Shown here piece by piece: positions 34,906 to 55,167 of a stretch of DNA of 64,000 nucleotides. Position 1 is the stretch's first letter. Every line of letters starts with the position of its first letter. This DNA comes from a virus. The translations under genes were made by a program, and so were the position numbers. The notes under the pieces are model-generated. The model was not told the DNA's origin. It did no database searches and saw only the letters and a list, made by a program, of their open reading frames with translations. The stretch lies in the IMG/VR virus record IMGVR_UViG_3300049846_000568, positions 81,809-145,808 of that record; one strand, 5' to 3'.

Positions 34906-34937
34906 CGTGCTCCTCGATTTATTGATTGTAGTTGATA

Positions 34938-34944
34938 TAGTAAC
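34938..34944 (-). promoter_or_regulatory. Putative late promoter motif GTTACTA
   Basis: RTTACTA found in five intergenic gaps about 30-50 nt upstream of start codons. Confidence 0.55.
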
Positions 34945-34952
34945 AGGAGAAC

Positions 34953-34984
34953 CAACAAACCCCCCGACAAGCGGGGGGCTGTTG
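34953..34984 (-). terminator. Rho-independent terminator after the major tail tube gene
   Basis: CCCCCCG-CTTGT-CGGGGGG hairpin followed by TTTGTT on the minus strand. Confidence 0.8.
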
Positions 34985-35011
34985 AATAAGTTAAGTTGTA
35001 ACTAGCTAAGA

Positions 35012-35692
35012 TTACGGGATGACGATCCTAGGTAGATCTGGATCAGCGTCCGAGAAGCCCGAGAAAGAGGCATCGCCGATACCACCATCGCGTGGCTGCT
35101 TAGTTGCGAACATTGGGCCTACGTCACGAGCCACGTATGTCATGGTCTCTTCGATTACGACGTCATCCATGGATGCGCCGGAGCCCTCGTTTAGAAGCTC
35201 TACGCCGTAGATGCTACGCATAGCTGCCTGGCCGTACTCGTTAGCAAACGTGATGGTCACATCAAATGGTGGAATCTGGTCTGCGTAGTATGGGAAGGCC
35301 TTTGCGATGTCACGTGTCTGGTACTGTACCGGGGTAATACCGCGGTGAGTTACGTTGCCATTAGTGTCGAAACCAGGCATAACGTTAGACGAACGAGTGA
35401 AGTACTTCACGGAATCGTCGTTCACGTGCTTCAACAGCATCTCATATAGGGCTGGACGGTCGAATGTGGTGAAGATCATAGATCCTGCGATACCACGCTT
35501 ACCACGAGAGAACGAACGGGGGTTCGGGGAACCCATCGTGTAAATGGGGGCCTTCTCACGTGTGATCGACCAGGTAATACCTGATAGTGTACCAACTGTA
35601 ACGCCACCAAACACGCAGACAATATCTGCACCGGAGAATGTGGTGTAGGTGTCTGTATATCTGCTTAGCGGCTGTGTCTGTGTTGCCGGCAT
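35012..35692 (-). CDS. Major tail tube protein
   Basis: Follows the sheath; strong GGAGGAG RBS; followed by a terminator; TFSGADIV, REKAPIYTMG, RGKRGIAGS, DQIPPFDV. Confidence 0.8.
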   Translation of the reverse strand: MPATQTQPLSRYTDTYTTFSGADIVCVFGGVTVGTLSGITWSITREKAPIYTMGSPNPRSFSRGKRGIAGSMIFTTFDRPALYEMLLKHVNDDSVKYFTRSSNVMPGFDTNGNVTHRGITPVQYQTRDIAKAFPYYADQIPPFDVTITFANEYGQAAMRSIYGVELLNEGSGASMDDVVIEETMTYVARDVGPMFATKQPRDGGIGDASFSGFSDADPDLPRIVIP

Positions 35693-35740: not shown

Positions 35741-37027
35741 TTAAAGGTTAATGCTTACCTGAACTTCGATGTTGCGAAGTTCGAATGCTGGGGTTAGGAT
35801 CAGGTCGACCACAGCCTTAGCGTCCCGTGGGAAGTAGGTGACTGTGAAGTCGCTGGAGATCAGGGCCCCTAGCTTCTGCATGCCCATCAGGCCATTTGTA
35901 ATACCTGTCTCTAGAGCATTGCGGATCTCAATTGTTGCTGCCTCACCGATGAAGTTCTGGGCAACATTGCGAACAACCTGTACTGCGTCGTTCACGATAC
36001 GGACTGTGGTAAGTCTACGATACTGTGAAGTATCCTTGGCGAAGGTTAGGGCATCTACCCAAACAGCCTCGCGCTGGAAGTTCAGCGCTACAGGCACAAC
36101 ACCCTCATCGATCAGGTTCTGCTGCTGCGTCTTTGTTGGGACATAACGCAGAGCTGCGACGTTGAAGATACGCTTCATTGTGGGTGCTGACCACGAATCT
36201 AGCTGTGTGATATAGCCTGCGTACAAAGCTGCACCGTTTGACCAACCCCAGCTGTAGGTATCCTCGTAGCCTAGTGGCTTGACCTCTACACCAACGATTG
36301 AGATATATGGACCAACTGCGCCCATGCTGTCGTCATTACGATCTGCTAGGTTTGTGATTGCGCCGCCAATGTGAGACGAAACTGCAGATGGCGTCATACC
36401 ACCGGAGGTGTCAGCCTGCCCAGTCCATGGCTTGATGCCCATCACGGCAAAGCATGGGTGGGAGTTCTGAGTAATCGTCTTGCATTCTGTCGCTACCTTG
36501 AAAGCCCAGTTACGAGCTACGATCGCACTATTGTCTGCGTAGAAGCCAAACTCTGTTGTGCCAGGGGTGGCTGGTGTAGAGTGGTCATCCCAGTCATCTG
36601 AGCTTGAGCCACGACCCCATGGAACAACGATATCTGCCTGGGCTGCCTCTACAGCAGACCATGCATCGGCCCATAGGTCTGTACCACCACGGCCAGTATA
36701 TGCGGCCGAGCTAATTGTGCCCATAGTGTGATCAAAAACTGTGTCAGATGGCAGGGCAACAGCACTAATGCGTGTTGCGCCACCCGCTACAGCCTCTAGA
36801 TATCCACGAACGATGTCAGACTCTTCACCAAATACTGTTCCAAGTTCCTGCTCACTTGACACATTGTAGATGTCAAGGTCGTAAATCGCACGGCCAGAAC
36901 TATTTTCTGTGCCATCGGCGGTTGTGCGACGCCCGAGAATCAGAACCCTTGGCCCCTGTGGGACATCTGTTCTGGATACCGTATAGAAACGGTCCTTAAT
37001 TACAGTACTAACGCCTGGGAGTGCCAA
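35741..37027 (-). CDS. Tail sheath protein
   Basis: N-terminal MALPGV; C-terminal sheath domain (RRLTTVRIVND...FIGE...PAFELRNIEVQV); TTG start with GGAGG RBS. Confidence 0.9.
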   Translation of the reverse strand: MALPGVSTVIKDRFYTVSRTDVPQGPRVLILGRRTTADGTENSSGRAIYDLDIYNVSSEQELGTVFGEESDIVRGYLEAVAGGATRISAVALPSDTVFDHTMGTISSAAYTGRGGTDLWADAWSAVEAAQADIVVPWGRGSSSDDWDDHSTPATPGTTEFGFYADNSAIVARNWAFKVATECKTITQNSHPCFAVMGIKPWTGQADTSGGMTPSAVSSHIGGAITNLADRNDDSMGAVGPYISIVGVEVKPLGYEDTYSWGWSNGAALYAGYITQLDSWSAPTMKRIFNVAALRYVPTKTQQQNLIDEGVVPVALNFQREAVWVDALTFAKDTSQYRRLTTVRIVNDAVQVVRNVAQNFIGEAATIEIRNALETGITNGLMGMQKLGALISSDFTVTYFPRDAKAVVDLILTPAFELRNIEVQVSINL

Positions 37028-37071
37028 TTTGATTCCTCCATAGTTACTTGCAGAGATGCGATCTAGCTATT

Positions 37072-37078
37072 TAGTAAT
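37072..37078 (-). promoter_or_regulatory. Putative late promoter motif ATTACTA upstream of sheath
   Basis: Instance of the shared RTTACTA motif. Confidence 0.55.
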
Positions 37079-37146
37079 CGAAAGCTCTGGTCAATTGTAG
37101 TTTCAGGTCATATAATTCTTGATGGAGGGCAGATTCTTTACCATGT

Positions 37147-38034
37147 TTAGGTGTTTGGCGTGGCGTATTCGTCCTGAATGTCAACCTCAACATGGCCTAA
37201 CCAAACGGCGAGCCTTCCAACTCCGTCAGCTGTGATGCTAATAGCATCTCCTGCGGCACTTTGCAAGTAAAGCTTGTTTCCGTCGATGGCCGTAATCGTG
37301 TAGCGCCAACCATGGTGTAGGCCCTCTGGTAGTGGGTTGTCTAAATCTTCATGCACGACGACCTCTGCACCAACTGTCAGAGCGTGTGTCTGCACTACGA
37401 TATAGTCGGTGCCAGATGTGGCGGTGAAGACATCTCTAATAGATTCTAGGAACGTGCGGGCTCTAACCAAGATGGTATCAAATCTATCAACCGGAATCTG
37501 TCGAACCCTCTCAAGATGGATTCGGTAAACTACGGCTCTCTTGCATATATCTTCTGCGTCACGATTCTCGTCGCTATCAGATAGACGTCTTCCATACCAG
37601 ATATTCGAAATGCCCAACTTCTGTAGGACAGGTGTGATTTCCTCCATGAAGTCTTCGAAAAGCTCCATGATAGCTTCGGCTAGATCTGGTTCGTTCTCTG
37701 TAATGACCGTGAACGAAATAATGTGGTTGAATACCTGACCAACAACTCTATAAATCTGACCAGTCGTCTGATCCTTTACGAATTCACGATGTCTGCGCTT
37801 ATCGTCACTGTTTGCCGTCGTCTTGTTTTCAATGCCGTAAACGATACATGGATACTTGGCGAAATTCTTGCCCTGAGTTGGCAGAAGTGGAATGTCTGGC
37901 TGCCCCTCATTCCATAGTTCTTGGATGAGGGCGATCATCTCACGAAATGTTAGATTGCCACTTGCCCTAAGATGCTCCCAGTTGCGCAGAGGTGCTGCAA
38001 TCTCGTTCTTGGGCTGCGTGTAATACTCTGGCAT
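37147..38034 (-). CDS. Tail completion/terminator-like protein with C-terminal beta domain
   Basis: Immediately upstream of the sheath; YPCIVY...ISFTVITEN...A...FEDF pattern; ends DEYATPNT. Confidence 0.6.
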   Translation of the reverse strand: MPEYYTQPKNEIAAPLRNWEHLRASGNLTFREMIALIQELWNEGQPDIPLLPTQGKNFAKYPCIVYGIENKTTANSDDKRRHREFVKDQTTGQIYRVVGQVFNHIISFTVITENEPDLAEAIMELFEDFMEEITPVLQKLGISNIWYGRRLSDSDENRDAEDICKRAVVYRIHLERVRQIPVDRFDTILVRARTFLESIRDVFTATSGTDYIVVQTHALTVGAEVVVHEDLDNPLPEGLHHGWRYTITAIDGNKLYLQSAAGDAISITADGVGRLAVWLGHVEVDIQDEYATPNT

Positions 38035-38035
38035 G

Positions 38036-39703
38036 CTATGCTCCTGGTCCTACTTCAACGGTGAAGAACAGCTCTCGAACGCCAAAGTATGGAGTTAGGG
38101 AGAGTGTAACGATCACAGTCTGCTCCGGATCGATCTGTGGTGGGCGTCTGGAGATGTCAAGCTGGTATCCCCTAATCTGTCCACCCGTCACAAGAAGCTG
38201 TAGCATCTCTTCTACTTGCCGCTTAAATGTGCCGTACTGAATAGTGCCAATCACACTGTTGCCAAGTAGCTTGATTTCGTGGATTACCCTACCAACCATA
38301 CGCATAGACACTACAGACCAAAAATCACTTCCTTCTGCGCTGAATAGGTTATCTGTTGCAACGACAGTATTGTAGGGTTCGCCGCGCTTGCCCCTTTGTC
38401 TGCGAACGACAGAATTGATTCGGCATTGGGCCAACTCCTGAATCTGTTCGTATGACAAGTCCTTACCGATCGGATTTACCGCATTAGGGATTGTCAAGTA
38501 CGTAAAGCCGCGGTTAAGCTGCTGCGCGGAAAGGATGCCAGCAACCGCCGAAACTACGGAGTTGGTGTATGTAAGCGGGGCCTGGGGGAGGGTGAATGTA
38601 GCCTCTCCAAATATGATCATTCCAAACTTATATGGAAGGCTGTCTGCGGCTTCGTCTTCCCTTGTTGGGTAGTTGGTGTCGTATCCGTCATAGGTAGTCC
38701 AAGGAGAATCGAAATCAATTGGATCGCCATAGGCTGCTGCGTCTCCAGTTAAAGCAGCGACGTGATCTAAGAAGTCCTGCCTCGTAAATCCGCCCAAGCT
38801 AAGTACTAGGGGTGTATTCTTCATCTCTTCTAAATCATCTTCTGTCCATGGACCCATCTGTGTGCCAAGAAGGCCAATGGACACAAAACCGGTGTTAACA
38901 AAGCGGTCGTAGCAATTCCAAATAAGATCCTCAAAGAAATCCACACCATCAGTATCGTGATAGGCGGCTTCTACTAGAACAAGGAGTTCGATGTTCTCCC
39001 AATCAAGAAGCGCATCATATGTGACCCTAAGGCGTTCACGGTATCTACCGTACCAGTTAAGCCCGCCCCAAATATCGCGCTGTTCTAATCTGGCTGTTCG
39101 ATCAGTACCGTTAAAGGGGATGTACTCACTCATCGGGGCTGCCGCCACAAGCCAGATATCCCTGGCCCCCGCATTATAGGCTTCAAGCATGGCGCGAATC
39201 AGCGGACACGCCGCATCGCCACCAAGGGCATTGACTGCCTCCTTGACGTTCGTGACCTGGAACGGAGAGTTTATACCGATACCGTCGCCATGCCCCACAA
39301 GAAAGATCGTGTCGGTAAGACCAATACCCATAACATCGTAACGATGGGATTCACGAATCTTGCCATAAACACGGGGAGGATCGATAAGCGAGTTTGGCTC
39401 TACGTCTGGCTCTGCAAGCTGGAACACCTCTGTCTGCTGAATGGTGTCGCCACTAACAGTAGCGTCCCAAACCACGGTATAGTTTGAGGGAACCAAGAAA
39501 GCGTCGATTGTAATCGAGATTGAATACTGTCCAGTACCAAGCCTTGTAACTTCCCCTTCAGAATATACATACGGTCCATAGACGGTATCGCTGAAGTTTC
39601 GGGTAACTCTAACTGTCACCTCATCTGGATCATATAGGGTGCCAGTATAGTCATACCACGTTGAATAGAATGTACCTGTGTCAGAATTGTAAAGTACTTC
39701 CAT
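38036..39703 (-). CDS. Second sheath-like protein with N-terminal Ig-like domain
   Basis: Start taken at ATG 39703 (TAATG overlap) rather than 39739. LIRAMLEAYNAGARDI parallels IVRGYLEAVAGGATRI of the sheath; C-terminal LTPYFGVREL parallels LTPAFELRNI. Confidence 0.7.
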   Translation of the reverse strand: MEVLYNSDTGTFYSTWYDYTGTLYDPDEVTVRVTRNFSDTVYGPYVYSEGEVTRLGTGQYSISITIDAFLVPSNYTVVWDATVSGDTIQQTEVFQLAEPDVEPNSLIDPPRVYGKIRESHRYDVMGIGLTDTIFLVGHGDGIGINSPFQVTNVKEAVNALGGDAACPLIRAMLEAYNAGARDIWLVAAAPMSEYIPFNGTDRTARLEQRDIWGGLNWYGRYRERLRVTYDALLDWENIELLVLVEAAYHDTDGVDFFEDLIWNCYDRFVNTGFVSIGLLGTQMGPWTEDDLEEMKNTPLVLSLGGFTRQDFLDHVAALTGDAAAYGDPIDFDSPWTTYDGYDTNYPTREDEAADSLPYKFGMIIFGEATFTLPQAPLTYTNSVVSAVAGILSAQQLNRGFTYLTIPNAVNPIGKDLSYEQIQELAQCRINSVVRRQRGKRGEPYNTVVATDNLFSAEGSDFWSVVSMRMVGRVIHEIKLLGNSVIGTIQYGTFKRQVEEMLQLLVTGGQIRGYQLDISRRPPQIDPEQTVIVTLSLTPYFGVRELFFTVEVGPGA

Positions 39704-40092
39704 TACGTAGGCCTTTCCTGGGATACGCCACAAACCCAAAACTCAATACGCCCACCACGACCCCTCATAGGGATAGACTTGTCGATCAAAAAGGTAGACA
39801 TGCTGTTTGGGTACAAGTCAATGTTCTCGTAGATGCGGTCACCAGATGCCGGATTCGAATCCCACTTAAAGAAGTAGATCATCTCAGAATCGTGAACAAT
39901 GCCTTCAGACATTTCAATAGCAAGATTGGCGAGCAGACGACTACTTGGGTGCATATGCCTTACGGTGTGGCGCTCCAGCCGACGAGTGTATGACGGTGTG
40001 GCGCTTGCGTACTCATTCTCGCGGCGCTGCAGGATGATGTTGTGACCGTATCTCCTAAGCGTTGCCTCAAAGCTATTACGAAGGTTCGCCAT
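39703..40092 (-). CDS. Head closure / head-tail connector protein
   Basis: 129 aa; LRRYGHNIILQR, YFFKWD..P..GDRIYE, RGRGGRIEF; neck-gene position. Confidence 0.65.
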   Translation of the reverse strand: MANLRNSFEATLRRYGHNIILQRRENEYASATPSYTRRLERHTVRHMHPSSRLLANLAIEMSEGIVHDSEMIYFFKWDSNPASGDRIYENIDLYPNSMSTFLIDKSIPMRGRGGRIEFWVCGVSQERPT

Positions 40093-40918
40093 CTAGCAGT
40101 CCTTGCTTATGGGGTTCGTATTTCTCGTATTCATCATCTCTACGCAGCTTGCGGATAGGAATAGGGTTGTCGTAGTTTGAACCATGAACAAAAGCCCTTG
40201 AAGAAGAAGCCTTATAGATAACTTCCTTCCTCAACGCCGCTGCTAGTTCGCACCAGGTTGTAGCGTTGCCGCGGTTGGTAGATGACTTCGGGAAGGAACG
40301 ATATGTGACAGAGAAATCACCAAGAGCAATAGACTGCTCATTGCCGTCCCCAAGCTCAAAGACCCGGCTCAACTCACACGCTGCTGCTGCCTTAATGTAG
40401 TCTAGTGCTGTTGGATCTGTTGGGCATTCACCGTCACCCAACTTCAGTATCGTGTTAAGTTCGGATGATGCGCGCCAAATAGCCTCTGCGATGTCAAGCT
40501 CTGTGGCGTCGGGGAAAATAGCTACAAGCTCATCCGGGTTAACGCACAGTGGGGTAATCACGCCAGCCATTGATACTGTCTCATCGGCCAATAGAGTTTC
40601 TGCTGTTGTGGTCGAATCGACACTGGGGTCAATGACCGTAAAGTCGTCCGTAACGACATCACTACTACCATCACCGAAGACGCCAACGAACTCAACGAAA
40701 AAGTCGCCCGCTGCTGTTGGTGTCCAGTCGTAATAGTATACGCCATCAGATTCTTTTGTTGGGGTGCCAGACGCTACAGTTGTAGGGCTTGCGGCCATAT
40801 CGACAATACGAAATGTCACCGTTACCGGATCCTCTACAGAGGATGTGCCAGTACCACTATCCCAAGAGTAGAATGTAACCCTAATTCTGATTGTATCGCC
40901 CACGTAAGCTGTCGACAT
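40076..40918 (-). CDS. Head-tail adaptor with N-terminal Ig-like domain
   Basis: N-terminal beta sandwich (GVYYYDWTP..GDF); C-terminal adaptor-like helices with 'SIALGDFSVTY'. Confidence 0.6.
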   Translation of the reverse strand: MSTAYVGDTIRIRVTFYSWDSGTGTSSVEDPVTVTFRIVDMAASPTTVASGTPTKESDGVYYYDWTPTAAGDFFVEFVGVFGDGSSDVVTDDFTVIDPSVDSTTTAETLLADETVSMAGVITPLCVNPDELVAIFPDATELDIAEAIWRASSELNTILKLGDGECPTDPTALDYIKAAAACELSRVFELGDGNEQSIALGDFSVTYRSFPKSSTNRGNATTWCELAAALRKEVIYKASSSRAFVHGSNYDNPIPIRKLRRDDEYEKYEPHKQGLLDGEPS

Positions 40919-40928
40919 AAAAGCTCCA

Positions 40929-41711
40929 CTATTCGATTTCTAGAGTAGAAATGTGAAGGGGATCAACGATAATCTGCCCGCGACGAGGTGATGTAGACAT
41001 TGAGCCACTGCGCTTGTTCGTCTCAGTAGACCCTTCTCTTGTAAGTATAGTAATCCGACCAGCCCTAATATCGTTATCTAATGCTGCAGAATAGTGAATT
41101 AGGTGTATAACTGGGACGTTGTGAACCATTTGTGCGGAGGCCAAAATAGCCTCAAGATTAAGCGATGTTTCCAGATCGGGAGCAAAAGCTAATGCATCTG
41201 CGCTTAAAAGCCCCGGGAATACACCCGCACCCGCACCAACCAATGGGGTAGAGAACTCGGCGTTTAGGTCTGCGACCACTGCGGTCAAGATCTTAGAAAT
41301 GGACAGGTCTACTGCAAACGCCTGGGCGGAAGCCGACATAGACAGTGGATCGATCCCAATACCCAAAGCAGTTGATGGGTCATATGCACCAGCAGTTGCA
41401 TCGGACAGGTTGCTGGCTATCACAATGCCAATTGACAAACTCGGCACAGCTGCGGAGCCTGTAGCTAGCATGTAGGACGGCAAAAGGGTTAGCCCGATCG
41501 ACAAAGATGGACTAACCCCGTCACCAGTAGCTGTAGCTGTAACGGCAGCTAAATTCTGCTGCCACGTATAAGTAACGTTAGGGTCTAGAGCTAATGCCGT
41601 TGCCACCATTACTGGAGACGCAGCGGTAATGTCGGAACCGCCACCTATGGCGTCGACAACATATCTATCACCATACGTTAAGGTTGCATAAGGTCCCCGT
41701 CCGTATGGCAT
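40929..41711 (-). CDS. Hypothetical virion protein with degenerate ~22-aa Ala-rich beta repeats
   Basis: 260 aa; recurring A-x-A-x-A-x-x-P-x-L periodicity. Confidence 0.55.
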   Translation of the reverse strand: MPYGRGPYATLTYGDRYVVDAIGGGSDITAASPVMVATALALDPNVTYTWQQNLAAVTATATGDGVSPSLSIGLTLLPSYMLATGSAAVPSLSIGIVIASNLSDATAGAYDPSTALGIGIDPLSMSASAQAFAVDLSISKILTAVVADLNAEFSTPLVGAGAGVFPGLLSADALAFAPDLETSLNLEAILASAQMVHNVPVIHLIHYSAALDNDIRAGRITILTREGSTETNKRSGSMSTSPRRGQIIVDPLHISTLEIE

Positions 41712-41717
41712 AGATGG

Positions 41718-42272
41718 TTATCCCCTCTTTGTTAGCGTAACATATATATCTGTGACTACATTGATGTAGTGCTTAATAGCAAAGGAGCGAGCTTCTTCAC
41801 TCCTATTTTGCCACGCCGGATCGAGTGCATATCCATAAACAAAATCGAAATCAGACTTGATCGGATAGTGGTCGAGCCCATTCGTAGTGCGCCATTCCTT
41901 ATTGTAGTAAAGGAAACTAGCCTCCGAAATAGCCCTAACATGTGTTGGATCTTGCCAAGCACGGATCGAGCTGTAATATGGGGCCACCACAGACATCTTG
42001 CCACCTGGCTTCAAAGTTCTGTGAACCTCATCCATAAATGCCATAAGATCGGCTACGTGTTCGATAAAGTGCGAACACTCAAATTCATCAACAGAATCAT
42101 CTTCAAATGGCCATGGGTAGACGTTCAAGTCATGAACTATATCTACTCCCTCCATTTCAGATATGTCTATACCAAGAAAACCTTCTGGCTTCCTCTGACC
42201 ACAAGCCAACGATACTCTAACTGGCTCTTCTACGACTTCTTCACTACCAGACGATGTCGTTGTCTGCGTCAT
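41718..42272 (-). CDS. Class I SAM-dependent methyltransferase (copy A)
   Basis: LACG motif I, GIDI, HDLN..PWPFEDDSVD, SHFIEH, RTLKPGG, DPTH. Confidence 0.9.
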   Translation of the reverse strand: MTQTTTSSGSEEVVEEPVRVSLACGQRKPEGFLGIDISEMEGVDIVHDLNVYPWPFEDDSVDEFECSHFIEHVADLMAFMDEVHRTLKPGGKMSVVAPYYSSIRAWQDPTHVRAISEASFLYYNKEWRTTNGLDHYPIKSDFDFVYGYALDPAWQNRSEEARSFAIKHYINVVTDIYVTLTKRG

Positions 42273-42963
42273 AATGACCTACCTTCACTCTCGTATCACA
42301 TGCGAACCTGTAACCGAACTTAGCGGCGTTCTCGAAGAAATAGAGATCTTGGGTATACGCCCTCGTTCCCACCCCTGGACTATATGACTGCTCAGTTCTA
42401 AACCACGGTCGCGGAATTCTTTCATCCTTAAACATATCAAGCTTGAAAAGCGTAAAGCCCATTCCAAGCCCATTGCACTCTTGAATTGTGTCTGCCTGAG
42501 GCACCTGTGGCATGAAGTTCTTAGGCATGGCTTTTGGGTCTCCATAAATCATTGGCTGACCCTCCTCACCCTTGGTCCAATAAATTCCGCCAATAGCATC
42601 GTATTGGTCCATGTTCTCGTACAGCCTTAAAAGGCCATCTGGTGGAGGCATGTTGTCTTCCTCTAGTGTGAGGATGTACTTCCAATCTGAAAGGCCAGGC
42701 GTGTTGATGATCTGCTCAATAGCGCTAGAATAAGCTGAACCCACTTCCATGCCAATCATGAATATGCGAGTAAAGCGGTTATTCATGGGTGTCATTAGGG
42801 CCATCCAAGACTGAACGACCTTGGCGTGAATATGCCCTCTGGTCGGGACGAGACAAATAGTGGAAAGATCCCTATATGCCTGCCCCTTCTCTAGGCGCTC
42901 TAATGAGGCTGGATCCGTGTTATGTCTGCCTTCTAGATTCTCAATTACAATCTGAGGTTTCAT
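42244..42963 (-). CDS. GT-A fold (family 2-like) glycosyltransferase (copy A)
   Basis: LVPTRG, YILTLEED (DxD-like), GLGMGFTLF, QDLYF, VKVGH. Confidence 0.8.
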   Translation of the reverse strand: MKPQIVIENLEGRHNTDPASLERLEKGQAYRDLSTICLVPTRGHIHAKVVQSWMALMTPMNNRFTRIFMIGMEVGSAYSSAIEQIINTPGLSDWKYILTLEEDNMPPPDGLLRLYENMDQYDAIGGIYWTKGEEGQPMIYGDPKAMPKNFMPQVPQADTIQECNGLGMGFTLFKLDMFKDERIPRPWFRTEQSYSPGVGTRAYTQDLYFFENAAKFGYRFACDTRVKVGHYDADNDIVW

Positions 42964-42996
42964 ATACAGTTTCCCATTAGACGATATAACGTCTAC

Positions 42997-43005
42997 ATTA
43001 TATCA
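42997..43005 (-). promoter_or_regulatory. Extended -10 promoter TGaTATAAT upstream of GT copy A, followed by a TAGACG/CGTCTA hairpin
   Basis: Perfect TATAAT with TGn extension 33 nt before the GT ATG; conserved in copy B. Confidence 0.7.
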
Positions 43006-46000
43006 CTATGAAATGCTCGACGCCATGATGTTGTAGTAGGGGATGGCGTTGGAGGCGTAGGACCGGATGTCTCGGAAGTCCACGTTGTTCGGTGGGGCGG
43101 CCGACTGCACCGAGAACACGCCATGCCCCGGGTTGTATTGCGAGCCCGAGGATGCCGCCGTCACGCCGAAGGGGCGGTGGTTGTACGACGACGAGTTGTA
43201 GATGCCATAGGCCGTGAGCGCGGGGAGCACCGGGTTCAACGTCGATCCCGCAGCCGTGTGAGCGGTGACCCAGGCGTGCGCCAGCCAGTAGTTGCCCGGC
43301 GTGATCTGTGCCGTGATCGGGATAGGCATCATCACCGCACCCGAGAGGATGTTGTAGATGCTCGCCAGGGCCGACGTGAAGAACGACGTACCGACCGACG
43401 AACCGGCCGAACTGGTGGCGTGGGTCCCCTGGATGGTGGCGATGGTCGAGTTGCCCGAGATGTCCACCTGACTCGGGTATCGGAGGTCTACCTGGCGCGA
43501 GGCGGTGACCTGCGTGGCGTTGCTGAGGCTGATCCCGACCGAGTGCGAGACCGAGATGGGGAAGGTGGCCGCCCACATCGACTCCAGCCGAGTGTTGTTG
43601 GTCCCAGTGCCTCGGGAGTAGAGGGCGATGATCCGAGACATGATGAAGGACTGACTCGCCCCGCCAGTGGTGTTGGAGGCGTACACCGTGCCGGTGCTTC
43701 CCTGGAGGACGGTCTGCGAGGTGCCGCCCATCGTGTGCAGGACGTTGAGGCGGCCCGGCCCGACGTAGGCGGGGACCTGCATCGGCTGGAAGTACCACGA
43801 CGACACGCCCATAGCGAACGTGGTCGAGCCGGACTGGAGCGGAGGGATCGGCTCGAAGAAGTCGAAGTCCGGTCCGGCGTGGATTGATAGTGTTCCATTA
43901 GAGCCGTTGATTGATTGACTTAATGTAACGTTTGACCCACCAACAAATACATATTGAGCACCGGCGCCATCTAGCGTGCCGGTCGTTCCAGCAGTATTGC
44001 CGCCAGTTGAAACACCAACGTTAATTGGGTTGAAAGAGGCCGTAAGAGTACCGGCATTCAAGCCAAAGGTGATGTTGTTACCGTTGGCGAATGAGACACC
44101 ACTGAGAACAATGGTATTGCTATTACCTGAAAGGGTTATGTTGTTGCCGCCCGAAAGATATAGGGCACTTCCCTGTAAACTTCCTGTTGTTCCAGAAGTA
44201 TTATTCCCCTCCAGTTCCCACGACTGGACATATTTGCTTGCCTGATCAGTTCCAAGATATGAAGTATTGACGCTAGCTGTTATCTGGCTACTATTGCTCA
44301 TTCCAAAAGTTACACCATTGCTATCCGCAAACTTAACACTTGTAGATGCACCAGCAGTTTGAGTACCGGCAGCTAGAATGTTATATCCATCTCCTGATCC
44401 TGGTGGAAGCGAACCAGAAATGATGATCTCTCCACCAGAATTGCCAATGCTGATAACACCAGCACCTCGAAGAGTAAGAGAGCGCGCATCATACGTTGAA
44501 GAAGATGACTGTCCTGTTGTCTGTGATGAGCCATAAATACCAATTGTCTGATTAGTCTGAGCGACAGTATTAGGTCCCGAGATTGTAACGGTAGCTAACT
44601 GACCTGCTGCGGTAGACTGTGAAAGTGTAATGTTGTTGCCACCAGCAAGCACCAGACGAGACTGAACAACGCCAGTATCTCCAAGCGTATTACCACCACT
44701 GCTGACACCATAAGCCTGAGACAACATCGACACAACGACCGTTGCCCCATCTGTGGCTGTTGCCTGAGAGAGTCTTACGCCGTTGCCACCCTGGAACACG
44801 ATTGGAACTCCAGAAGTGGTACCAGTATTACCGGAGGTATTGCCGCCAGTACTTACACCAGCAGAAGGTACAAGACCCTGCGTCTGCACACTCTGAGCTG
44901 CAACGCTGACGGATATACCATTAGAGGCGATGGTGCCATTTGCGTTTGTTCCCGCAAATGCAGCTGTGGCCTGCACAAAGTCAGTGCCCCTGTTGGACGC
45001 CATGGCGGTGGTAATGGCGTTGGGTGCAGAGAGGTGGATCTTACCGTCATTACTCATATTAACGGTCAGGGACCCAGCCACGTCAAACGATAGGGACCTA
45101 GCGTCTGCGGTGCCGCTAGATGTACCAGCAGTATTCCCGGCTCCGTATAATCCTACCGTCTGTGCAGATTGTGCCGCTACGGATACCGAGATGTTGTTTG
45201 AGGCGATAGTGCCAGAAGCGTTTGTACCGTTGAAGTTGGCGTTGGCTTGAACAAAGTCCGTACCGCGATTAGAAGCCATGGCCGTTGTAAGCGCATTAGG
45301 GGCGGAGATGTTCACTTTACCGTTTGTAGCGTCTAGAGTAAGGGAGCCGCCAACTATATTGAACGAAAGCGACCGAGCATCGGCTGTACCCGTACTTGTC
45401 CCAGAAGTCTGCCCTGAGACGTAGAGACCTAGTGACTGATTAGTTTGAGCCGCTGCAGATACCGAGATACCGTTAGACGCAATGGTGCCTGCAGCGTTTG
45501 TGCCCGCGAATGCTGCAGTAGCCTGAACAAAGTCAGAACCACGGTTTGAAGCCATGGCTGTCGTAAGGGCATTGGGTACGGAAAGATTTACCTTACCGTT
45601 TGTAACATCGACCGTAATTGAACCCTGGGCATTAAACGTTAATGAGCGAGCATCAGCCGTAGCAGTGGACGTGCCAGAGGTATTGCCAGACGCATAAAGG
45701 CCAACACTCTGATTACTCTGATTGCTCACGGACACAGAAAGGCCGTTTGAGGCTATAGTACCTGATGCGTTTGTTCCCGCAAAAGCTGCTGTAGCCTGTA
45801 CAAAGTCGCTTCCGCGATTAGAAGCCATCGCGGTTGTAATGGCATTAGGAACAGACAGACGGATTGTGCCGCCACTCATGTCTGCTGTGATGGACCCGGC
45901 AGCTGATACCGATAGAGATCTTGCATCAACCGTCGCTGTTGATGTGCCAGACGTATTACCTAAACCATAGAGACCTACTGACTGGTTTGTCTGAGCCGGA

Positions 46001-47265
46001 ACGGAGACAGAAATGCCGCTCGATGCGATGGTACCATTCGCATTTGTCCCGGCGAAAGCCGCATTAGCTTGAACGAAGTCAGAGCCCCGGTTTGAGGCCA
46101 TAGCCGTCGTTATGGCGTTGGGTGCGGAAATGTTCACCTTACCATTTGTTGCATCGAGTGTAAGCGATCCACCAACAACATTAAATGAGAGCGACCTAGC
46201 ATCTGCTGTACCAGTGCTTGTTCCAGATGTCTGACCCGAAACATACAAGCCTACAGACTGATTGGTTTGAGCTGGAACGGAAACGGAAACACCATTAGAA
46301 GCTATAGTTCCATTAGCATTGGTGCCAGCAAAAGCAGCTGTGGCTGCAACAAAATCTGATCCCCTATTCGAGGCCATGGCTGTAGTGATAGCGTTGGGGA
46401 CAGATAAGTTAAGGCGACCATTTGTGATATCTGCAGTAATAGAACCAGCGACACTTACGGTGAACGACCGAGCATCAAGTGTGCCAGAGGAGGTGCCGGA
46501 TGTATTTCCTGCGGCGTAGAGCCCTACGGTTTGGTTGGTCTGCGCCGGAACGCTAGGCACAGTGTAAGAACCGACCATAGAACCGTTGCTCGTATAGAAC
46601 GACATGCCGTTAAGGTTGCCGAACGTTGCCGTCTGAAAAGTAAATGACCCATTAGATCCAGAAAGAGCCTGATTGCTCTGACTTGTCAGGGCGTTGTGGC
46701 TGGCCGTAAGTGTCGAGTTGTTGCCGCCAAACGTAATACCATTCGCGTTGCCGAATGAGATGTCTCCAGTAGAACCCTGAACAGAGACCATGTTCTGCGT
46801 CTGCACCGTCTGGGCTGCAGTGGTGGGACCGCTAATCGTGATAGCGTTACCATTCTGAGAAATGGTCACATTATTACCACCAGCGATCGTCATCGTACCA
46901 GATGAGATATTTGCGGTGGCGCCTGCCGTATTACCGCTAATCACTGCGGCTGTAAGGTTGATGAAGTCATTAACGGTAGGAGCGTGGTCCCATGTTGCTC
47001 CACCGGCCCAAGAAACGGCAGAAGCGCCTTCTTGGGCGCGCAAAACTGCACCAGTGCTATTTCCAGATGTGTAGCCGGTCATGTAAATGACCTCGCTATC
47101 CGAAACGGCGTTGGTGTTAATTAGCTGAATGGCAATATACTGATCTGCTGTAAGCGTAGGGAAAGCAGGTACGGCACCGAACGAGATCGCCGTTGCACTA
47201 GACGCCATTGCGGAGGCGATAGTGCCCTGCTGGAAATTAACCCTAACAGGATAAAGCGCAGCCAT
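43006..47265 (-). CDS. Ser/Thr/Gly/Asn-rich repetitive fibre protein A
   Basis: 1419 aa. N-terminal fibre-attachment-like domain (EVIYMTG...RAQEG), six ~90-aa repeats, and a C-terminal globular tip paralogous to fibre B. Confidence 0.75.
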   Translation of the reverse strand: MAALYPVRVNFQQGTIASAMASSATAISFGAVPAFPTLTADQYIAIQLINTNAVSDSEVIYMTGYTSGNSTGAVLRAQEGASAVSWAGGATWDHAPTVNDFINLTAAVISGNTAGATANISSGTMTIAGGNNVTISQNGNAITISGPTTAAQTVQTQNMVSVQGSTGDISFGNANGITFGGNNSTLTASHNALTSQSNQALSGSNGSFTFQTATFGNLNGMSFYTSNGSMVGSYTVPSVPAQTNQTVGLYAAGNTSGTSSGTLDARSFTVSVAGSITADITNGRLNLSVPNAITTAMASNRGSDFVAATAAFAGTNANGTIASNGVSVSVPAQTNQSVGLYVSGQTSGTSTGTADARSLSFNVVGGSLTLDATNGKVNISAPNAITTAMASNRGSDFVQANAAFAGTNANGTIASSGISVSVPAQTNQSVGLYGLGNTSGTSTATVDARSLSVSAAGSITADMSGGTIRLSVPNAITTAMASNRGSDFVQATAAFAGTNASGTIASNGLSVSVSNQSNQSVGLYASGNTSGTSTATADARSLTFNAQGSITVDVTNGKVNLSVPNALTTAMASNRGSDFVQATAAFAGTNAAGTIASNGISVSAAAQTNQSLGLYVSGQTSGTSTGTADARSLSFNIVGGSLTLDATNGKVNISAPNALTTAMASNRGTDFVQANANFNGTNASGTIASNNISVSVAAQSAQTVGLYGAGNTAGTSSGTADARSLSFDVAGSLTVNMSNDGKIHLSAPNAITTAMASNRGTDFVQATAAFAGTNANGTIASNGISVSVAAQSVQTQGLVPSAGVSTGGNTSGNTGTTSGVPIVFQGGNGVRLSQATATDGATVVVSMLSQAYGVSSGGNTLGDTGVVQSRLVLAGGNNITLSQSTAAGQLATVTISGPNTVAQTNQTIGIYGSSQTTGQSSSSTYDARSLTLRGAGVISIGNSGGEIIISGSLPPGSGDGYNILAAGTQTAGASTSVKFADSNGVTFGMSNSSQITASVNTSYLGTDQASKYVQSWELEGNNTSGTTGSLQGSALYLSGGNNITLSGNSNTIVLSGVSFANGNNITFGLNAGTLTASFNPINVGVSTGGNTAGTTGTLDGAGAQYVFVGGSNVTLSQSINGSNGTLSIHAGPDFDFFEPIPPLQSGSTTFAMGVSSWYFQPMQVPAYVGPGRLNVLHTMGGTSQTVLQGSTGTVYASNTTGGASQSFIMSRIIALYSRGTGTNNTRLESMWAATFPISVSHSVGISLSNATQVTASRQVDLRYPSQVDISGNSTIATIQGTHATSSAGSSVGTSFFTSALASIYNILSGAVMMPIPITAQITPGNYWLAHAWVTAHTAAGSTLNPVLPALTAYGIYNSSSYNHRPFGVTAASSGSQYNPGHGVFSVQSAAPPNNVDFRDIRSYASNAIPYYNIMASSIS
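44890..46545 (-). repeat. Six tandem ~270-nt coding repeats (…DARSL…PNAITTAMASNRGSDFV…)
   Basis: Six TAMASNRG cores counted in the translation; DNA copies diverge at third codon positions. Boundaries approximate. Confidence 0.9.
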
Positions 47266-47279
47266 GCGCTACCTCCGTA

Positions 47280-47720
47280 CTAAGAAACTGTGATTTGGAA
47301 GATACCACTAGCATTCCAAGTAATCTGGAAAGTGCCAGAAACCGTCGACATATCAGTACCAAAATCAACATAGCCCAATAACGGTCTTGTTGCATCGGTC
47401 GCTGGTGTGCGGTCATAAATTACTGCATAACGGGCAGTCACTGTCGATGTCGTCCAAGAAACATCATCGGCGTCCATAGTGATAAGATTGCTAGCACCGG
47501 TATATGTAATGGTCTTAGTGCTCAATGAAGATCCATTAGCCGTATAGCCAGTTCCAGATGCCTCATTGGCAACGACGTCATCCCAGTAATCGTGGGCGTC
47601 CTGATCCGGTGTATATGATGAGGTGACTAGCGCAACCCTGATATCATCAGAGTCCCAGTCGATTTCCTTGTTAAGAGCCTTCTTTAAGAAGGACCCATAC
47701 ATCTTTGCGCTGATTGCCAT
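47280..47720 (-). CDS. Small conserved phage structural protein (fibre/collar adaptor-like)
   Basis: IDWDSDDIRVALVTSSYTP, GTGYTANG, DADDVSW, ARYAVIY, YVDFG pattern commonly seen upstream of phage fibre genes. Confidence 0.65.
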   Translation of the reverse strand: MAISAKMYGSFLKKALNKEIDWDSDDIRVALVTSSYTPDQDAHDYWDDVVANEASGTGYTANGSSLSTKTITYTGASNLITMDADDVSWTTSTVTARYAVIYDRTPATDATRPLLGYVDFGTDMSTVSGTFQITWNASGIFQITVS

Positions 47721-47730
47721 TTAATCCTCA

Positions 47731-48519
47731 CTACGTAGTTAAGTTCTTAGAGATAACAATGCGGTACTTGTAGTTCTCGCTAAAGTACTCATAACCTGAT
47801 GTATAGTATACCACTGTCTCAGCGGGCGTGGCGGCCTCTGGGTAGTGGTCAACAGAAGGTAGGTCTACATATACGTAGATCCCATTCTGACTTAGACGTG
47901 CATCTATGTCTTCCCAGCGGGCTGGAGACCTTGAGATCTCCTTCTTCTGCACTTTGATGTTGGTCGAATTTACACTTGTTACGGCTGGTGCTTGACTAAA
48001 GGTTAGCCTGATGCGCCCGTAATGGTAATCCGCAGGTAGATAGTAGTCGCCATTGGGTGGATCGGCCTCGACAAACCTAAATGTCACGGTGTCTAGCGGA
48101 ATCGCAAACGTGTCGAACACAGTAGATACGATAGAATAATCTACAATGCTGACTTCCTCTGGTGCCGGAGGCAGACCATCAAGGGCCGTATTGACGGTAT
48201 CGCCAGTAGTGAACTGTACGACCCAATCATTAAGCGTTTGGCCCAGGATGTTCTTAAGCCCCGAAATCGTCAAAGTGTAATCAGTAGCCGGGGTTAGGAC
48301 ATCGTTGGCCCAATGCAGTGTCAGTGTTCTGCTAACAGAATTGTAATCCTCATTAAGGTCGATCGTATCAAACGGGTCAGTAATGGAGACCGGAGTTGCC
48401 TCATCTGTCGCAACTAAGAACTTGTCATTAGTAATCGAAGATGCTCTTAGCGACACGTTGAACTGAATCGTTACCTCATGAGCGGTTATGTCGATTGCCT
48501 CAACTAGATCTACAGCCAC
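47731..48519 (-). CDS. Ig-like (Big-5-type) head-associated protein
   Basis: GTG start with AGGAG RBS; LTPATDYTLTISGLKNILGQTL...FTTG; second Ig-like domain; two ATP motifs. Confidence 0.7.
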   Translation of the reverse strand: MAVDLVEAIDITAHEVTIQFNVSLRASSITNDKFLVATDEATPVSITDPFDTIDLNEDYNSVSRTLTLHWANDVLTPATDYTLTISGLKNILGQTLNDWVVQFTTGDTVNTALDGLPPAPEEVSIVDYSIVSTVFDTFAIPLDTVTFRFVEADPPNGDYYLPADYHYGRIRLTFSQAPAVTSVNSTNIKVQKKEISRSPARWEDIDARLSQNGIYVYVDLPSVDHYPEAATPAETVVYYTSGYEYFSENYKYRIVISKNLTT

Positions 48520-48551
48520 ATGAAACTCCTGAGTTCAAACCTATGTCTATA

Positions 48552-48558
48552 TAGTAAC
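48552..48558 (-). promoter_or_regulatory. Putative late promoter motif GTTACTA
   Basis: Instance of the shared RTTACTA motif, abutting the post-capsid hairpin. Confidence 0.5.
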
Positions 48559-48584
48559 AGGGACGGCCATAAAGACCGTCCCTG
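48558..48584 (-). terminator. Hairpin/terminator after the major capsid gene
   Basis: CAGGGACGG-tc-TTTAT-gg-CCGTCCCTG stem; only a short T-tract. Confidence 0.6.
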
Positions 48585-48611
48585 CCATTAGTATTAGATT
48601 GTAAGTCTTGA

Positions 48612-49664
48612 TTACGCTACAGTTCTGTGAAGCTCCACATCGTAGCTGCGTGCAAGATCCACGTTCTTTGCAACTGTGATGCCCTCGCCGTCACCCACCA
48701 TTACGATGTCGTAACGCTCCTTCATCTTCATTGCGCGGATGTCACGAGTCTGGTCTGTCCACTCATCTGTGGATAGGTCATCCTTAACAAGAAGGACGCC
48801 AACCTCGTTGCGGTCAATCAGGAACACATCAGACTTAGCTGCTGTTGCACCACTGCGTGCTGTGAAGCTGACGAATGGTGAAACAATCACGTTTAGGCCT
48901 GCTGGAGCTGTTGCGTTAGCAACACCTTCCTTAGAGCCAACACCCATACCCCAACGACCCGAAGGTACTGAATCGTTGCCGTACATAACTGCATTCTTTG
49001 CAAACAGCGCCCACATAAGTGGATGAATGATGAAGTCAGTAGGGGTGTGATTCTCTGCCATTAGAACTGCAGCCATATCAATGACGTCGTCCCATGTAAG
49101 GGTATCATTCTGGGCACCGGTTGAACCTAGGCCCGTTGTGGAATCGTAGGCGCCATCATCGTTATCGAAAACGATTGTTGCGGCGTCTGCGAAACGGGAT
49201 AGAGCTAGCTGCTCCTTATAGCGTGCCATAGCACGACCTGCAGCGCGAACGTGAAGGCCAACAATGTCCCAAAGGGAGTCAGAGATAACCTCTTCTGTGA
49301 AGACAACCTTCACACCCTTCTTGCTGACCTTACCCTCGACCTGCTTCGCGAATGCTAGAGCCTGCTCTGGGTATTCCTGTCCCTCTGGGATCTCTGCAGC
49401 CTGGATTGCGTTGACGGCTGGGAACTCGAGTGAACGACCCTTGCCAAGGCGCACGACAGAAAGAAGAGGAGTCACTAGAAGCTGTGGCTCAGCTGCTTCC
49501 TTCAGGGTGCGTGAAATCACCTTGGGGAACAGGATCGGAGCATCAGGAGAGGCAAAAGCCTCCTTGATGGTTACTCGATGCTCGTCATCGATGTTGCCGT
49601 CTTCTGCAAGGACTGACTCCCAAGTGGAGACATTCTGTAGAAGTTCTTCGATGGTCTTACTCAT
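48612..49664 (-). CDS. Major capsid protein (HK97 fold)
   Basis: AAEIPEGQEYPE, KKGVKVVFTEEVISDS, PTDFIIHP, GLNVIVSPFV, MKERYD; GGAGG RBS. Confidence 0.92.
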   Translation of the reverse strand: MSKTIEELLQNVSTWESVLAEDGNIDDEHRVTIKEAFASPDAPILFPKVISRTLKEAAEPQLLVTPLLSVVRLGKGRSLEFPAVNAIQAAEIPEGQEYPEQALAFAKQVEGKVSKKGVKVVFTEEVISDSLWDIVGLHVRAAGRAMARYKEQLALSRFADAATIVFDNDDGAYDSTTGLGSTGAQNDTLTWDDVIDMAAVLMAENHTPTDFIIHPLMWALFAKNAVMYGNDSVPSGRWGMGVGSKEGVANATAPAGLNVIVSPFVSFTARSGATAAKSDVFLIDRNEVGVLLVKDDLSTDEWTDQTRDIRAMKMKERYDIVMVGDGEGITVAKNVDLARSYDVELHRTVA

Positions 49665-49702
49665 TTAGGATTCTTCCTCCTGTCGTTACCTTAACAATTA
49701 GA

Positions 49703-50470
49703 TTACAGCGTTAGATTAACACGAACAGCGCCAACCACATTCGCTGTATCTAGGTTGGCCCGGATACCAAGCTTGCCCGAGTATGGACCGCTCTTAGTTA
49801 GTTCGTAAACTTCCTTGAGAGCACCTGGATCCGATGGCAGCTGCATATAGGAAAGTAGGCCGTCATCGAAGTTTGAAGCAAATGACTCAACCTCAATAAC
49901 CTTACCTACGATCAGGTATGGGTAGTTGCTTGCCTCGGTGTTGTTGCCAAGTGTAGGAGCCTTGACCGGACGACCCATGTGGTCGGACGTTACAAGATCG
50001 CCTGGGCTTAGGGTGTCGTTAACACCTGCAACCAGTGGCCACTCAACATAACCGTGCGTAATCCAGCCTGCGCCCTGAGAAGTACCCTTATCGAATGGAC
50101 GATATAGGTCATACTGTGCGCAGCCGATCGGCACTGAACGTGCAGGGACTGTCACGGTATCTGTGTCGCCGCCAACGTTAGTTGGGGTTGCACCCGTCTC
50201 TAGGTCAACGGTGTCTGCGTCGCCCCATGCCTGGGAGGAAGTTGTACCGTTTGCTGGAACAATGCGGGAATCACCATTTGCAATCTCAACGACCGAAAGG
50301 ATGGTGCCCTTAGGAATAACAATCTCGAAACGGTCATCCTCAATGTCTGTGTAGAGAGTTGGTAGACCCTCGTGAGGAAGTAGGTATGCCGAAGGTGCAA
50401 TACCCTCAGATACTACGAAACGACCGGAACCGTTCTTGCCATAAACCTTACGAAACTTTGCTGTACTCAT
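49703..50470 (-). CDS. Capsid decoration / head stabilising protein
   Basis: Between scaffold and MCP; IPKGTILS, PIGCAQ, LSPGDLVTSDHMGRPV, IVGKVI beta-tulip-like pattern. Confidence 0.7.
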   Translation of the reverse strand: MSTAKFRKVYGKNGSGRFVVSEGIAPSAYLLPHEGLPTLYTDIEDDRFEIVIPKGTILSVVEIANGDSRIVPANGTTSSQAWGDADTVDLETGATPTNVGGDTDTVTVPARSVPIGCAQYDLYRPFDKGTSQGAGWITHGYVEWPLVAGVNDTLSPGDLVTSDHMGRPVKAPTLGNNTEASNYPYLIVGKVIEVESFASNFDDGLLSYMQLPSDPGALKEVYELTKSGPYSGKLGIRANLDTANVVGAVRVNLTL

Positions 50471-50495: not shown

Positions 50496-51290
50496 TTACA
50501 GTGCCCTGCGACCCATTAGAGTGTCGGTTAGGAGATCCTCGAAAGCCTTAGTAGGATCCTTCGCCTCTTCCTCAACCTCTGCATCTACGGTGTCGACATT
50601 TTCCTCGCCCTCAACAGCGGCAATCTTGGGCTCTACGACGCCAGTAGGCATCTCGCGCTCAGTTGCTACCATCTTAGGCATTGCTGCTAGATCGCGAAGT
50701 GAATCAGCCAGCGAAGATGCGGTGCGACCTGCATGCTCCTCAATTGCCTCTGCACGACGAGATGACTCCTCAAGACCAGCTGTGATCTTTGCATCAACTA
50801 CTCGCTCTGCGAGCGTGCGATGTAGGGCCTTCTTTAGTCTAGCATTCTCTTCCTCAAGAGCCGTGACACGTGACTGAAGCTCGTCAACATCGTGCTCAGC
50901 CTCGACAGCATTTGTCTCGGTGAGGTCTGTATCGTCAGCCTGCTCACTTGCCTGGTCTCCCTCAGCTACCGCTTCGCCCTCTTCCTCGACAGCCTCTTCG
51001 ACTGTCTCGGACTCTTCGGACTCACGGGTGTCTGATGCGTCATCTGAATCTTCGGCCTCAGCAGTTGTATCCTGAGCTTGCTCAGCCTCTTCGGTTTCTG
51101 ACTGGTCATCTGACTCTGTAGTGGTATCTGCGTCAGTTTCTTCGGCCTCACTCTGCTCAGTAGCTTCTGCCGAATCATCTGAGGCTTCCTCAGTCTCCAC
51201 AGCAGCATTCAGGTCATCGCTTAGACCCTCTGTAATGGCGAGGATATCCTCGTCCTGCTCTGCTGTATCGACATGCTCTTCGTTAGCCAT
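50496..51290 (-). CDS. Probable nested in-frame scaffolding protein
   Basis: GAGGAG 9 nt before an internal ATG (MANEEHV...) at the start of the acidic region. Confidence 0.6.
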   Translation of the reverse strand: MANEEHVDTAEQDEDILAITEGLSDDLNAAVETEEASDDSAEATEQSEAEETDADTTTESDDQSETEEAEQAQDTTAEAEDSDDASDTRESEESETVEEAVEEEGEAVAEGDQASEQADDTDLTETNAVEAEHDVDELQSRVTALEEENARLKKALHRTLAERVVDAKITAGLEESSRRAEAIEEHAGRTASSLADSLRDLAAMPKMVATEREMPTGVVEPKIAAVEGEENVDTVDAEVEEEAKDPTKAFEDLLTDTLMGRRAL

Positions 51291-55091: not shown

Positions 55092-55143
55092 TTATATACC
55101 TTTGCCTCGACCTATATAAATCTAGAACCGTTCCTCTAGAAGA

Positions 55144-55150: not shown

Positions 55151-55167
55151 CTAGATGCCTATATAAA

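Follow-up and report, generated by a model that had tools for sequence, protein, structure and literature searches.

An [A/S]-T-P motif maintained on virion proteins of a large myovirus lineage, with a glycosyltransferase of the head operon as its candidate reader

Mycobacteriophage virions are reportedly O-glycosylated by phage-encoded glycosyltransferases, as a 2023 report by Freeman et al. in Cell Host Microbe is said to describe. In the literature searched, phage virion glycosylation was found for mycobacteriophages only, and no sequon of the kind considered here was described. According to one summary, the glycans of such actinobacterial siphoviruses are carried C-terminally on the capsid and tail-tube subunits (PMC12619734). 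Here, virion proteins were analyzed in a window of 64,000 nucleotides, the terminal 64 kb of the single-contig, 145,808-bp virus record IMGVR_UViG_3300049846_000568 (CheckV completeness 69%), in which all long genes lie on the minus strand; positions are those of the window unless a genome or contig is named. The tripeptide Ala-Thr-Pro (ATP in one-letter code), or more exactly [A/S]-T-P, is selected in several unrelated protein families, lies in loops where modeled, turns over between relatives and is depleted in giant proteins. It is very likely a functional motif in at least five of these families, and its candidate reader is a 253-amino-acid (aa) glycosyltransferase (GT) encoded at 52237-52998.

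Gene order and weak similarity place the phage in the Bacillus phage 0305phi8-36/Moorella MTATph1 group of large myoviruses, with matches to the portal (~33%), major capsid protein (MCP, 40%), gp123 protease/scaffold, gp140/141 tube and gp139 sheath proteins of that group. Megablast of the region against catalogued phages gave no match, and IMG/VR held 547 relatives with MCPs at 75-85% identity, by sample names mostly from freshwater metagenomes. The relatives compared were ~140 non-redundant MCP-centered loci and four further whole genomes (G001, G003, G004, G005), which together with the whole record of this phage (G000) form the five genomes of the ingroup. The outgroup comprised 21 loci, with MCPs 35-44% identical to that of this phage, and five whole genomes, two of them 100% complete.

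The distal tail or baseplate protein of 1678 aa (2053-7089, minus strand), whose N-terminal part is like 0305phi8-36 gp162 and which has one Big_1/invasin-type Ig domain (Pfam and PHROG; gp162/gp163 similarity), contains 17 ATP compared with 0.58 expected, and was the source of the "same tag" that the first-pass annotation of this DNA had followed into other outer virion proteins. Ala precedes 17 of its 23 Thr-Pro (TP) dipeptides, whereas the remaining five orderings of these three residues together occur 4 times. Its homologues in the five genomes have 9-17 ATP each, with ATP the top tripeptide outlier in all (p 1e-12 to 1e-20). When six homologues were aligned, 45 groups of [A/S]TP sites were obtained, 3 common to all and 12 unique; A/S swaps are frequent and many sites are in indels, yet each protein keeps ~10-20 sites. 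An A-S-P at aa1314-1317 is aligned with ATP or Ser-Thr-Pro (STP) in relatives, and one Thr-to-Ser swap was found at the acceptor position. Across 166 unique sites the consensus is D/E at −3, G/S/D/A at −2, A (125) or S (41) at −1, T, P and then N/S/V/G/T, with K and R nearly absent from −3 to +3. The motif is thus not ATP alone, as had been proposed, but [A/S]-T-P with A and S interchangeable at −1.

Outside the tail protein, all six ATP positions listed by the first-pass annotation proved exact on the minus strand, and five of the six are conserved or recurrent in orthologue alignments with variable flanks. Two lie in the 262-aa, two-domain Ig-like head protein (47731-48519, minus strand; Big_5 domain by Pfam), at aa41 (48399-48391) and aa230 (47832-47824). 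Among 119 orthologues, with a mean identity of 35% to the protein of this phage, the first site is ATP in 105 and STP in 8 and the second is ATP in 104 and STP in 10, with flanking residues identical to those of this phage in only 1-29% of sequences, one upstream position (71%) excepted. Only 2.3% of three-residue windows are as conserved as the two ATP windows. The family has a mean of 2.69 ATP compared with 0.06 expected, and a third site present in most relatives is replaced here by D-T-V (48201-48193). In a structural model (predicted local distance difference test [pLDDT] 79), site 41 is in a loop after strand 34-38 and site 230 in a low-confidence loop; for sites outside this protein, exposure was judged from indel-rich flanks.

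The 255-aa head protein encoded between the protease/scaffold and MCP genes (49703-50470, minus strand) has its ATP at aa94 (50191-50183; G-A-T-P = aa93-96), and this site, the sole TP of the family, is retained in 126 of 129 orthologues amid flanks that are 6-11% conserved. Its earlier label as a decoration protein agrees with its gene position, which would suit a decoration or scaffold-like protein, and has no other basis; no Pfam or PHROG hit and no 0305phi8-36 homologue were found. In the gp139-like tail sheath (35741-37027, minus strand; gp139 match and PHROG tail sheath over aa 238-426), the ATP at aa153 (36571-36563, context STPATPG) is in the first half of the protein, clear of the conserved sheath domain at the C-terminus; P-A-T-P-G is retained in four of the five genomes and displaced by three residues in the fifth. 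The 295-aa neck/tail protein (37147-38034, minus strand; BLASTP to ORF138, E 1e-5), which had been called a tail terminator, is homologous to ORF138 of 0305phi8-36, which mass spectrometry identified in the virion and which lies between two sheath paralogues. Its ATP is at aa291 (37164-37156; YATPNT followed by the stop), three residues before the end, and in four of the five genomes an ATP lies 2-3 residues from the C-terminus with differing flanks, three of these also having a second ATP. The 567-aa sheath paralogue (38036-39739, minus strand), likened to gp137 on weak PHROG sheath hits and its place in the gene order, lacks ATP in this phage; relatives have 1-3, those of G003 and G005 being inside lineage-specific insertions. 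The sixth position, aa31 (40002-39994) of a 129-aa virion protein (39703-40092, minus strand) that had been labeled head closure and is gp136-like, is not conserved: none of 14 orthologues has ATP at the aligned position or elsewhere.

Ranked by ATP enrichment over the five genomes, the top six orthogroups were the tail protein, the Ig-like protein (13 ATP compared with 0.39 expected), the ORF138-like protein (7 and 0.34), the 255-aa protein (5 and 0.49), the sheath (6 and 0.97) and the sheath paralogue (4 and 0.49), which is nearly the list drawn up from the single genome; outside these six families the ingroup proteomes have ATP at expectation. The HK97-like MCP (48612-49664, minus strand; Pfam Phage_capsid_4) reads A-T-A at aa273-275 in this phage (48848-48840, SGATAAKSD) and SGATPAKSD in 47 of 141 relatives, so it is tagged in just part of the lineage. 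The expectation that sites would lie in lineage-specific insertions is borne out by Ig-like site 230, the sheath paralogue of relatives and many tail-protein sites, but not by the remaining sites. As far as the alignments tell, gain of sites in insertions, a shift by three residues, a near-C-terminal site and A/S swapping are typical of linear motifs. The AASP reported earlier in two proteins is present at aa42 of the 280-aa protein and aa30 of the 260-aa protein. In the complete genome G004, three further proteins have ATP at every TP: 290 aa at 87113-87985 (4/4), 145 aa at 127766-128203 (2/2) and 549 aa at 82598-84247 (2/2). None has an ATP-bearing counterpart in G000, which suggests that genomes differ in which proteins they tag.

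Giant proteins show the opposite pattern. The three giants of this phage (12335-32110, minus strand), which are a gp147 match of 2979 aa, a 1273-aa protein in the tape-measure (gp146) position and a gp145 match of 2209 aa, have neither ATP nor STP, and, as first noted, ATP is also absent from the two Ala/Thr-rich fibers of 1419 and 1668 aa. Neither absence is significant alone (0 compared with 1.40 expected, P=0.25, for the giants and 0 compared with 1.19, P=0.30, for the fibers). When all 27 proteins of at least 1100 aa in this class were pooled over the five genomes, 1 ATP was found compared with 12.2 expected (P 6.5e-5), and A or S precedes 4 of 127 TP. Giants of the two complete outgroup genomes, which have no GT, are not depleted (3 ATP compared with 5.4 expected). 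The proposal that internal proteins lack the tag stands for the giants as a class, but this class takes in the tape-measure-like giants, the neighboring 1762-aa tail protein, fibers and a 1114-aa non-structural protein, and not only internal proteins.

A motif that is real but unmodified could also be maintained for a structural role, for instance in capping a loop or the beginning of a strand, or for docking, as a tag to which a shared partner such as a fiber, decoration protein or assembly chaperone binds. TP with V/I/T and then a hydrophobic residue looks like a beta-strand beginning, and two strands of the Big_5 domain enclose Ig-like site 41. The lineage-specific Ig-like and 255-aa proteins could belong to a docking system, and modification of the threonine is a prediction. 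We nevertheless consider this explanation rather unlikely. Five or more unrelated folds carry the motif, which is also found at a free C-terminus and in a low-confidence loop; Ala and Ser replace each other at −1, Ser can stand at the acceptor position, and sites are displaced, gained and lost in indels with their number kept up. The depletion in giants and the exclusion of basic flanking residues are more easily explained by the specificity of an enzyme.

Counts from this genome were also evaluated. The span 35741-50470 has 6 ATP in 5 proteins compared with 1.83 expected (P=0.011), and the permutation TPA occurs 5 times. Judged from GT-less relatives, in which ATP numbered 50 compared with 24 expected in the 21 outgroup loci (L327-L353) and 16 compared with 9.4 and 15 compared with 10.8 genome-wide in G011 and G012, the naive expectation from the product of compositions is ~1.5-2x too low; against that baseline the P value of the span would be ~0.16, and modest excesses of ATP should not be taken as signal. 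With the 1678-aa protein removed, the genome has 15 ATP compared with 10.7 expected (P=0.13), no distinguishable excess over chance, and the non-structural proteins have 3 compared with 3.5. The rank of ATP among all tripeptides without the tail protein is 881st in G000, 2753rd in G001, 7th in G003 and 10th in G004. A virion-wide code would not stand on the data of this genome alone.

These figures, together with the unconserved site of the 129-aa protein, are what would be expected if the motif were functional only in the 1678-aa tail protein and the ATPs of head, neck and sheath proteins were chance occurrences kept by ordinary conservation. Such a history is improbable in light of the alignments. 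Both ATP windows of the Ig-like protein, set in freely varying flanks, are among the 2.3% of triplets that are most conserved, the excess in that family is far above expectation with a third site in most members, and at 30-50% identity the sheath and ORF138-like proteins still have their sites, in place or nearby. In G003 and G004, ATP keeps its high rank without the tail protein, and the giants are depleted.

The candidate reader (52237-52998, minus strand; G000 134045-134806) is encoded between the portal (53442-55091, minus strand; PHROG portal, E 7e-44) and the gp123-like prohead protease/scaffold (50496-52163, minus strand; BLASTP to gp123, E 6e-40). Its AlphaFold model has a GT-A Rossmann-like fold (pLDDT 87.8, predicted template modeling score 0.89). 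Foldseek against the PDB returned at least 500 hits, every one listed being a glycosyltransferase, with the best to COLGALT1 (E 1e-15, template modeling score 0.73-0.76), LH3 and Mimivirus R699; GT2 enzymes ranked next. These three best matches are presumably protein O-glycosyltransferases, acting on a protein side chain. The COLGALT1 match, at 13-15% identity, covers residues ~50-160, which we take to be within the N-terminal GT domain, and a profile of 34 sequences also matched COLGALT1 among PDB profiles (E 2e-8). D114-S115-D116, aligned to the D-A-D of COLGALT1, is invariant in 34 orthologues and 30 distant homologues, and Q204-G-E-D207 is also invariant. Pfam gave only Anp1 at 19.4 bits, under the cut-off of 28.8; among the 34 orthologues, 30 hit Anp1 and 3 Glycos_transf_2, all weakly, and homologues have a precomputed PF13704 domain. 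By its modeled fold the product is a bona fide GT-A glycosyltransferase, and sugar transfer is predicted.

Two GTs only are core to the five genomes, this one and a GT2 enzyme at G000 59342-60178, which is beside genes for deoxycytidylate (dCMP) deaminase, ThyX and ribonucleotide reductase (RNR). The sugar cluster at G000 53417-60178, upstream of the window, consists of a GT17, two GT2, an RmlD-like reductase and an S-adenosylmethionine methyltransferase and adjoins the dCMP deaminase, ThyX and B12-type RNR genes; apart from the GT2 at 59342-60178, this cluster (also L216 and L326) is common to G004 only. With two core GTs and an accessory sugar-gene cluster, the enzyme between portal and protease, named earlier as the best candidate, is a leading candidate but not the sole one. 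In more distant phages (L226, L228, L230, L243, L284), homologues of the two core GTs are adjacent, from which one member of an old GT pair would have moved into the head operon in the present lineage. At L226 9974-17697, the only such cluster annotated, the GT pair heads ~8 kb of sugar genes that also encode a GT11, two FkbM methyltransferases, a nucleoside diphosphate-sugar epimerase/dehydratase and another five enzymes of GT2 type; the adjoining RNR, of 676 aa, resembles the one in G000. The closest homologue outside the lineage (E 7.5e-89), at L221 1823-5708 on the contig of P0121, is beside SpoVR, DUF444 and dCMP-deaminase genes rather than virion genes, and P0133 (842 aa) is a fused form with the GT domain at residues 7-253. 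Contigs of individual distant GT representatives were of too little length to inform on gene context. The regions within 10 kb on either side of second-tier GT homologues hold sugar and nucleotide-metabolism genes, with ~18 ATP compared with ~24 expected; as they have no virion genes, the lack of enrichment there is uninformative.

The window also has a duplicated three-gene cassette (41718-47265 and 55584-61945) of an Ala/Thr-rich fiber (1419 or 1668 aa), a phrog_1574 protein and a phrog_6636 methyltransferase-like protein. The fibers have ~12% Thr and a single TP, the two phrog_1574 copies are 96% identical, and the cassette is absent from the loci of all relatives and from G001-G005. It may be a second modification system, dedicated to the fibers. 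For phrog_1574 as a glycosyltransferase, no Pfam hit was obtained, the match to the STIV A197 glycosyltransferase was weak (E 0.14), and hhalign against the GT profile gave a probability of 0.3%. Collagen-like proteins with Gly-X-Y runs (TGP/GPT or ATG/GAT, x20-140) were observed at G001 18048-21899, G009 36884-39013 and G008 39102-40694 and 60902-62968, and are of note because the nearest solved relative of the GT glycosylates collagen.

The GT is between portal and protease in 70 of the 70 ingroup loci that span this interval, and among ~200 loci no ingroup genome that had lost both core GTs was found. The 21 outgroup loci have portal, protease and MCP; they have neither the GT nor an Ig-like homologue, none of their proteins carries two ATP, and a 255-aa homologue is absent save for one weak 28% hit (L380). 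The GT profile matched none of the five whole outgroup genomes and, as a positive control, matched 5/5 known carriers. In the outgroup genomes scanned, ATP-rich proteins were marginal at most (best p 6e-4 among the 539 proteins of G011 and G012), and ATP numbered 4 compared with 4.6 expected in the structural block of 0305phi8-36 and 12 compared with 7.1 in MTATph1. Four contigs of unrelated phages with a distant GT homologue (G006, G007, G008, G009) were also inspected. G009, with a homologous GT pair, encodes a 903-aa protein in which 6 of 6 TP are ATP (0.17 expected), and G006, also with the pair, a 604-aa protein with 5 ATP and 2 STP among 9 TP (0.17 ATP expected). These two proteins are related to each other, unrelated to any G000 protein and encoded just after giant tail genes. 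The proposed co-occurrence of ATP enrichment with the GT is thus seen across the ingroup, with neither of the two present in the outgroup, and recurs in G006 and G009. The data fit a link between them but amount to only about two independent events, of which the G006/G009 lineage is one.

S/T-P is a classic kinase determinant, and the threonine could be modified by a proline-directed kinase or a host enzyme while the portal-adjacent GT acts on DNA or a host envelope polymer. Genes for RNR and dCMP deaminase beside distant GT homologues, and the similar surroundings of the other core GT2, fit such a division of labor, to which we assign only a slim chance. No kinase or hydroxylase was found among the ten core non-structural genes tested, the motif is absent from related phages without the GT, the GT is inside the head-morphogenesis operon in 70 of 70 relatives, and its nearest solved relatives are enzymes that act on proteins.

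Three simpler candidates were rejected: a DNA-level motif, as the codons for A, T and P vary freely between sites and the motif is therefore one of the peptide; one ATP per Ig-like repeat, as Pfam finds a single Big_1 domain, sites are aperiodic and 3 of 45 site groups are common to the six homologues; and a Thr-Gln ester-bond or cross-link residue, against which the same observations speak, together with the swapping of A with S and of T with S.

O-glycosylation of the [A/S]-T-P threonine by a phage GT is the explanation we favor, with roughly even chances of being correct. [A/S]-T-P would be a short linear recognition motif, displayed where loops, linkers and termini are exposed on a particular set of outer virion proteins, which in this phage would comprise the 1678-aa tail, Ig-like, 255-aa, sheath and ORF138-like proteins, relatives adding the sheath paralogue and a third of them the MCP. 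A phage-encoded cytoplasmic GT would O-glycosylate the threonine before or during assembly, with the GT-A enzyme of 52237-52998 as the leading candidate reader; extension of the glycan may fall to the other core enzyme, the GT2 of G000 59342-60178, and to the accessory sugar cluster of some genomes, and the giants, including tail-interior-like ones, would have been purged of the motif. Taken as a whole, with a strict sequon (D/E)-x-[A/S]-T-P free of nearby basic residues, phage O-glycosylation of outer head, neck, sheath and distal-tail proteins, avoidance by giants and a COLGALT-related initiating GT-A enzyme moved into the head operon, the scheme is plausible at somewhat less than even chances. 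That the portal-adjacent GT is the initiating enzyme is a tentative assignment, a shade more doubtful again.

Several points weigh against O-glycosylation by this enzyme. We infer the modification of the threonine, its sugar nature and the GT responsible alike. The acceptor of COLGALT1, the nearest solved relative, is hydroxylysine and not Thr, and no lysyl hydroxylase was found in this phage. The distant GT homologues, in sugar clusters by nucleotide-metabolism genes, indicate that the family could act on another substrate. Outside the tail protein, ATP counts in G000 are indistinguishable from chance, with TPA equally common, and the ATP of the 129-aa protein is probably a chance occurrence. 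No ATP-rich protein was found in G007 and G008 (56-70% complete; GT pair or its first member), and no alternative tripeptide was found enriched in either. Orthologues are not independent samples, and as the GT, the motif and the Ig-like and 255-aa proteins arose on the same branch, the contrast between ingroup and outgroup is essentially one event. Of the virion-wide surface code read by one enzyme that the first-pass annotation proposed, comparison with relatives largely bears out the shared tag, its avoidance by giants and the linked GT, but not the counts or the 129-aa site, and the modification is putative.

If correct, the scheme would amount to the first bacteriophage example of a virion-wide glycan code defined by a sequon and would take phage virion glycosylation beyond actinobacteriophages, to abundant uncultured freshwater phages. 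A three-residue acceptor and a small soluble GT could be used to engineer glycans onto phage particles or recombinant proteins, and the density or avoidance of the motif would tell exposed virion proteins from sequence alone.

Several known systems share parts of this arrangement. COLGALT1/GLT25D1, the GT domain of LH3 and Mimivirus R699 are the best profile and fold matches of the GT and share its GT-A fold and DxD motif. COLGALT1/LH3-type enzymes are two- or multi-domain proteins that act on hydroxylysine (Hyl) in Gly-X-Hyl, unlike the Thr in [A/S]-T-P proposed here. Bacteroidota O-glycosylation uses the sequon D-(S/T)-(A/I/L/V/M/T), with en bloc transfer in the periplasm. That system is also defined by a minimal tripeptide on many unrelated proteins, proteome-wide, but differs in its motif, in its periplasmic en bloc transfer and in being cellular and not viral. 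Chlorovirus PBCV-1 encodes its own glycosylation of the MCP, N-linked at atypical sequons, and flagellins are O-glycosylated in the cytoplasm by GT-A/GT2 enzymes. As proposed here, soluble GTs that are not host-derived modify exposed sites of self-assembling proteins before assembly in both, although PBCV-1 glycans are N-linked and flagellin systems have one target protein and no strict tripeptide. The mycobacteriophage system is similar in that phage-encoded GTs are proposed or shown to decorate several virion structural proteins in the cytoplasm. In the present phage, where modification is predicted, the tube proteins (34156-35692) and the MCP have no [A/S]TP, and the sites are mostly in internal loops of myovirus tail, sheath, neck and accessory head proteins, only that of the ORF138-like protein being C-terminal. 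Unlike the mycobacteriophage proteins, those described here have in common a strict tripeptide with flanking rules, which is depleted in the giants.

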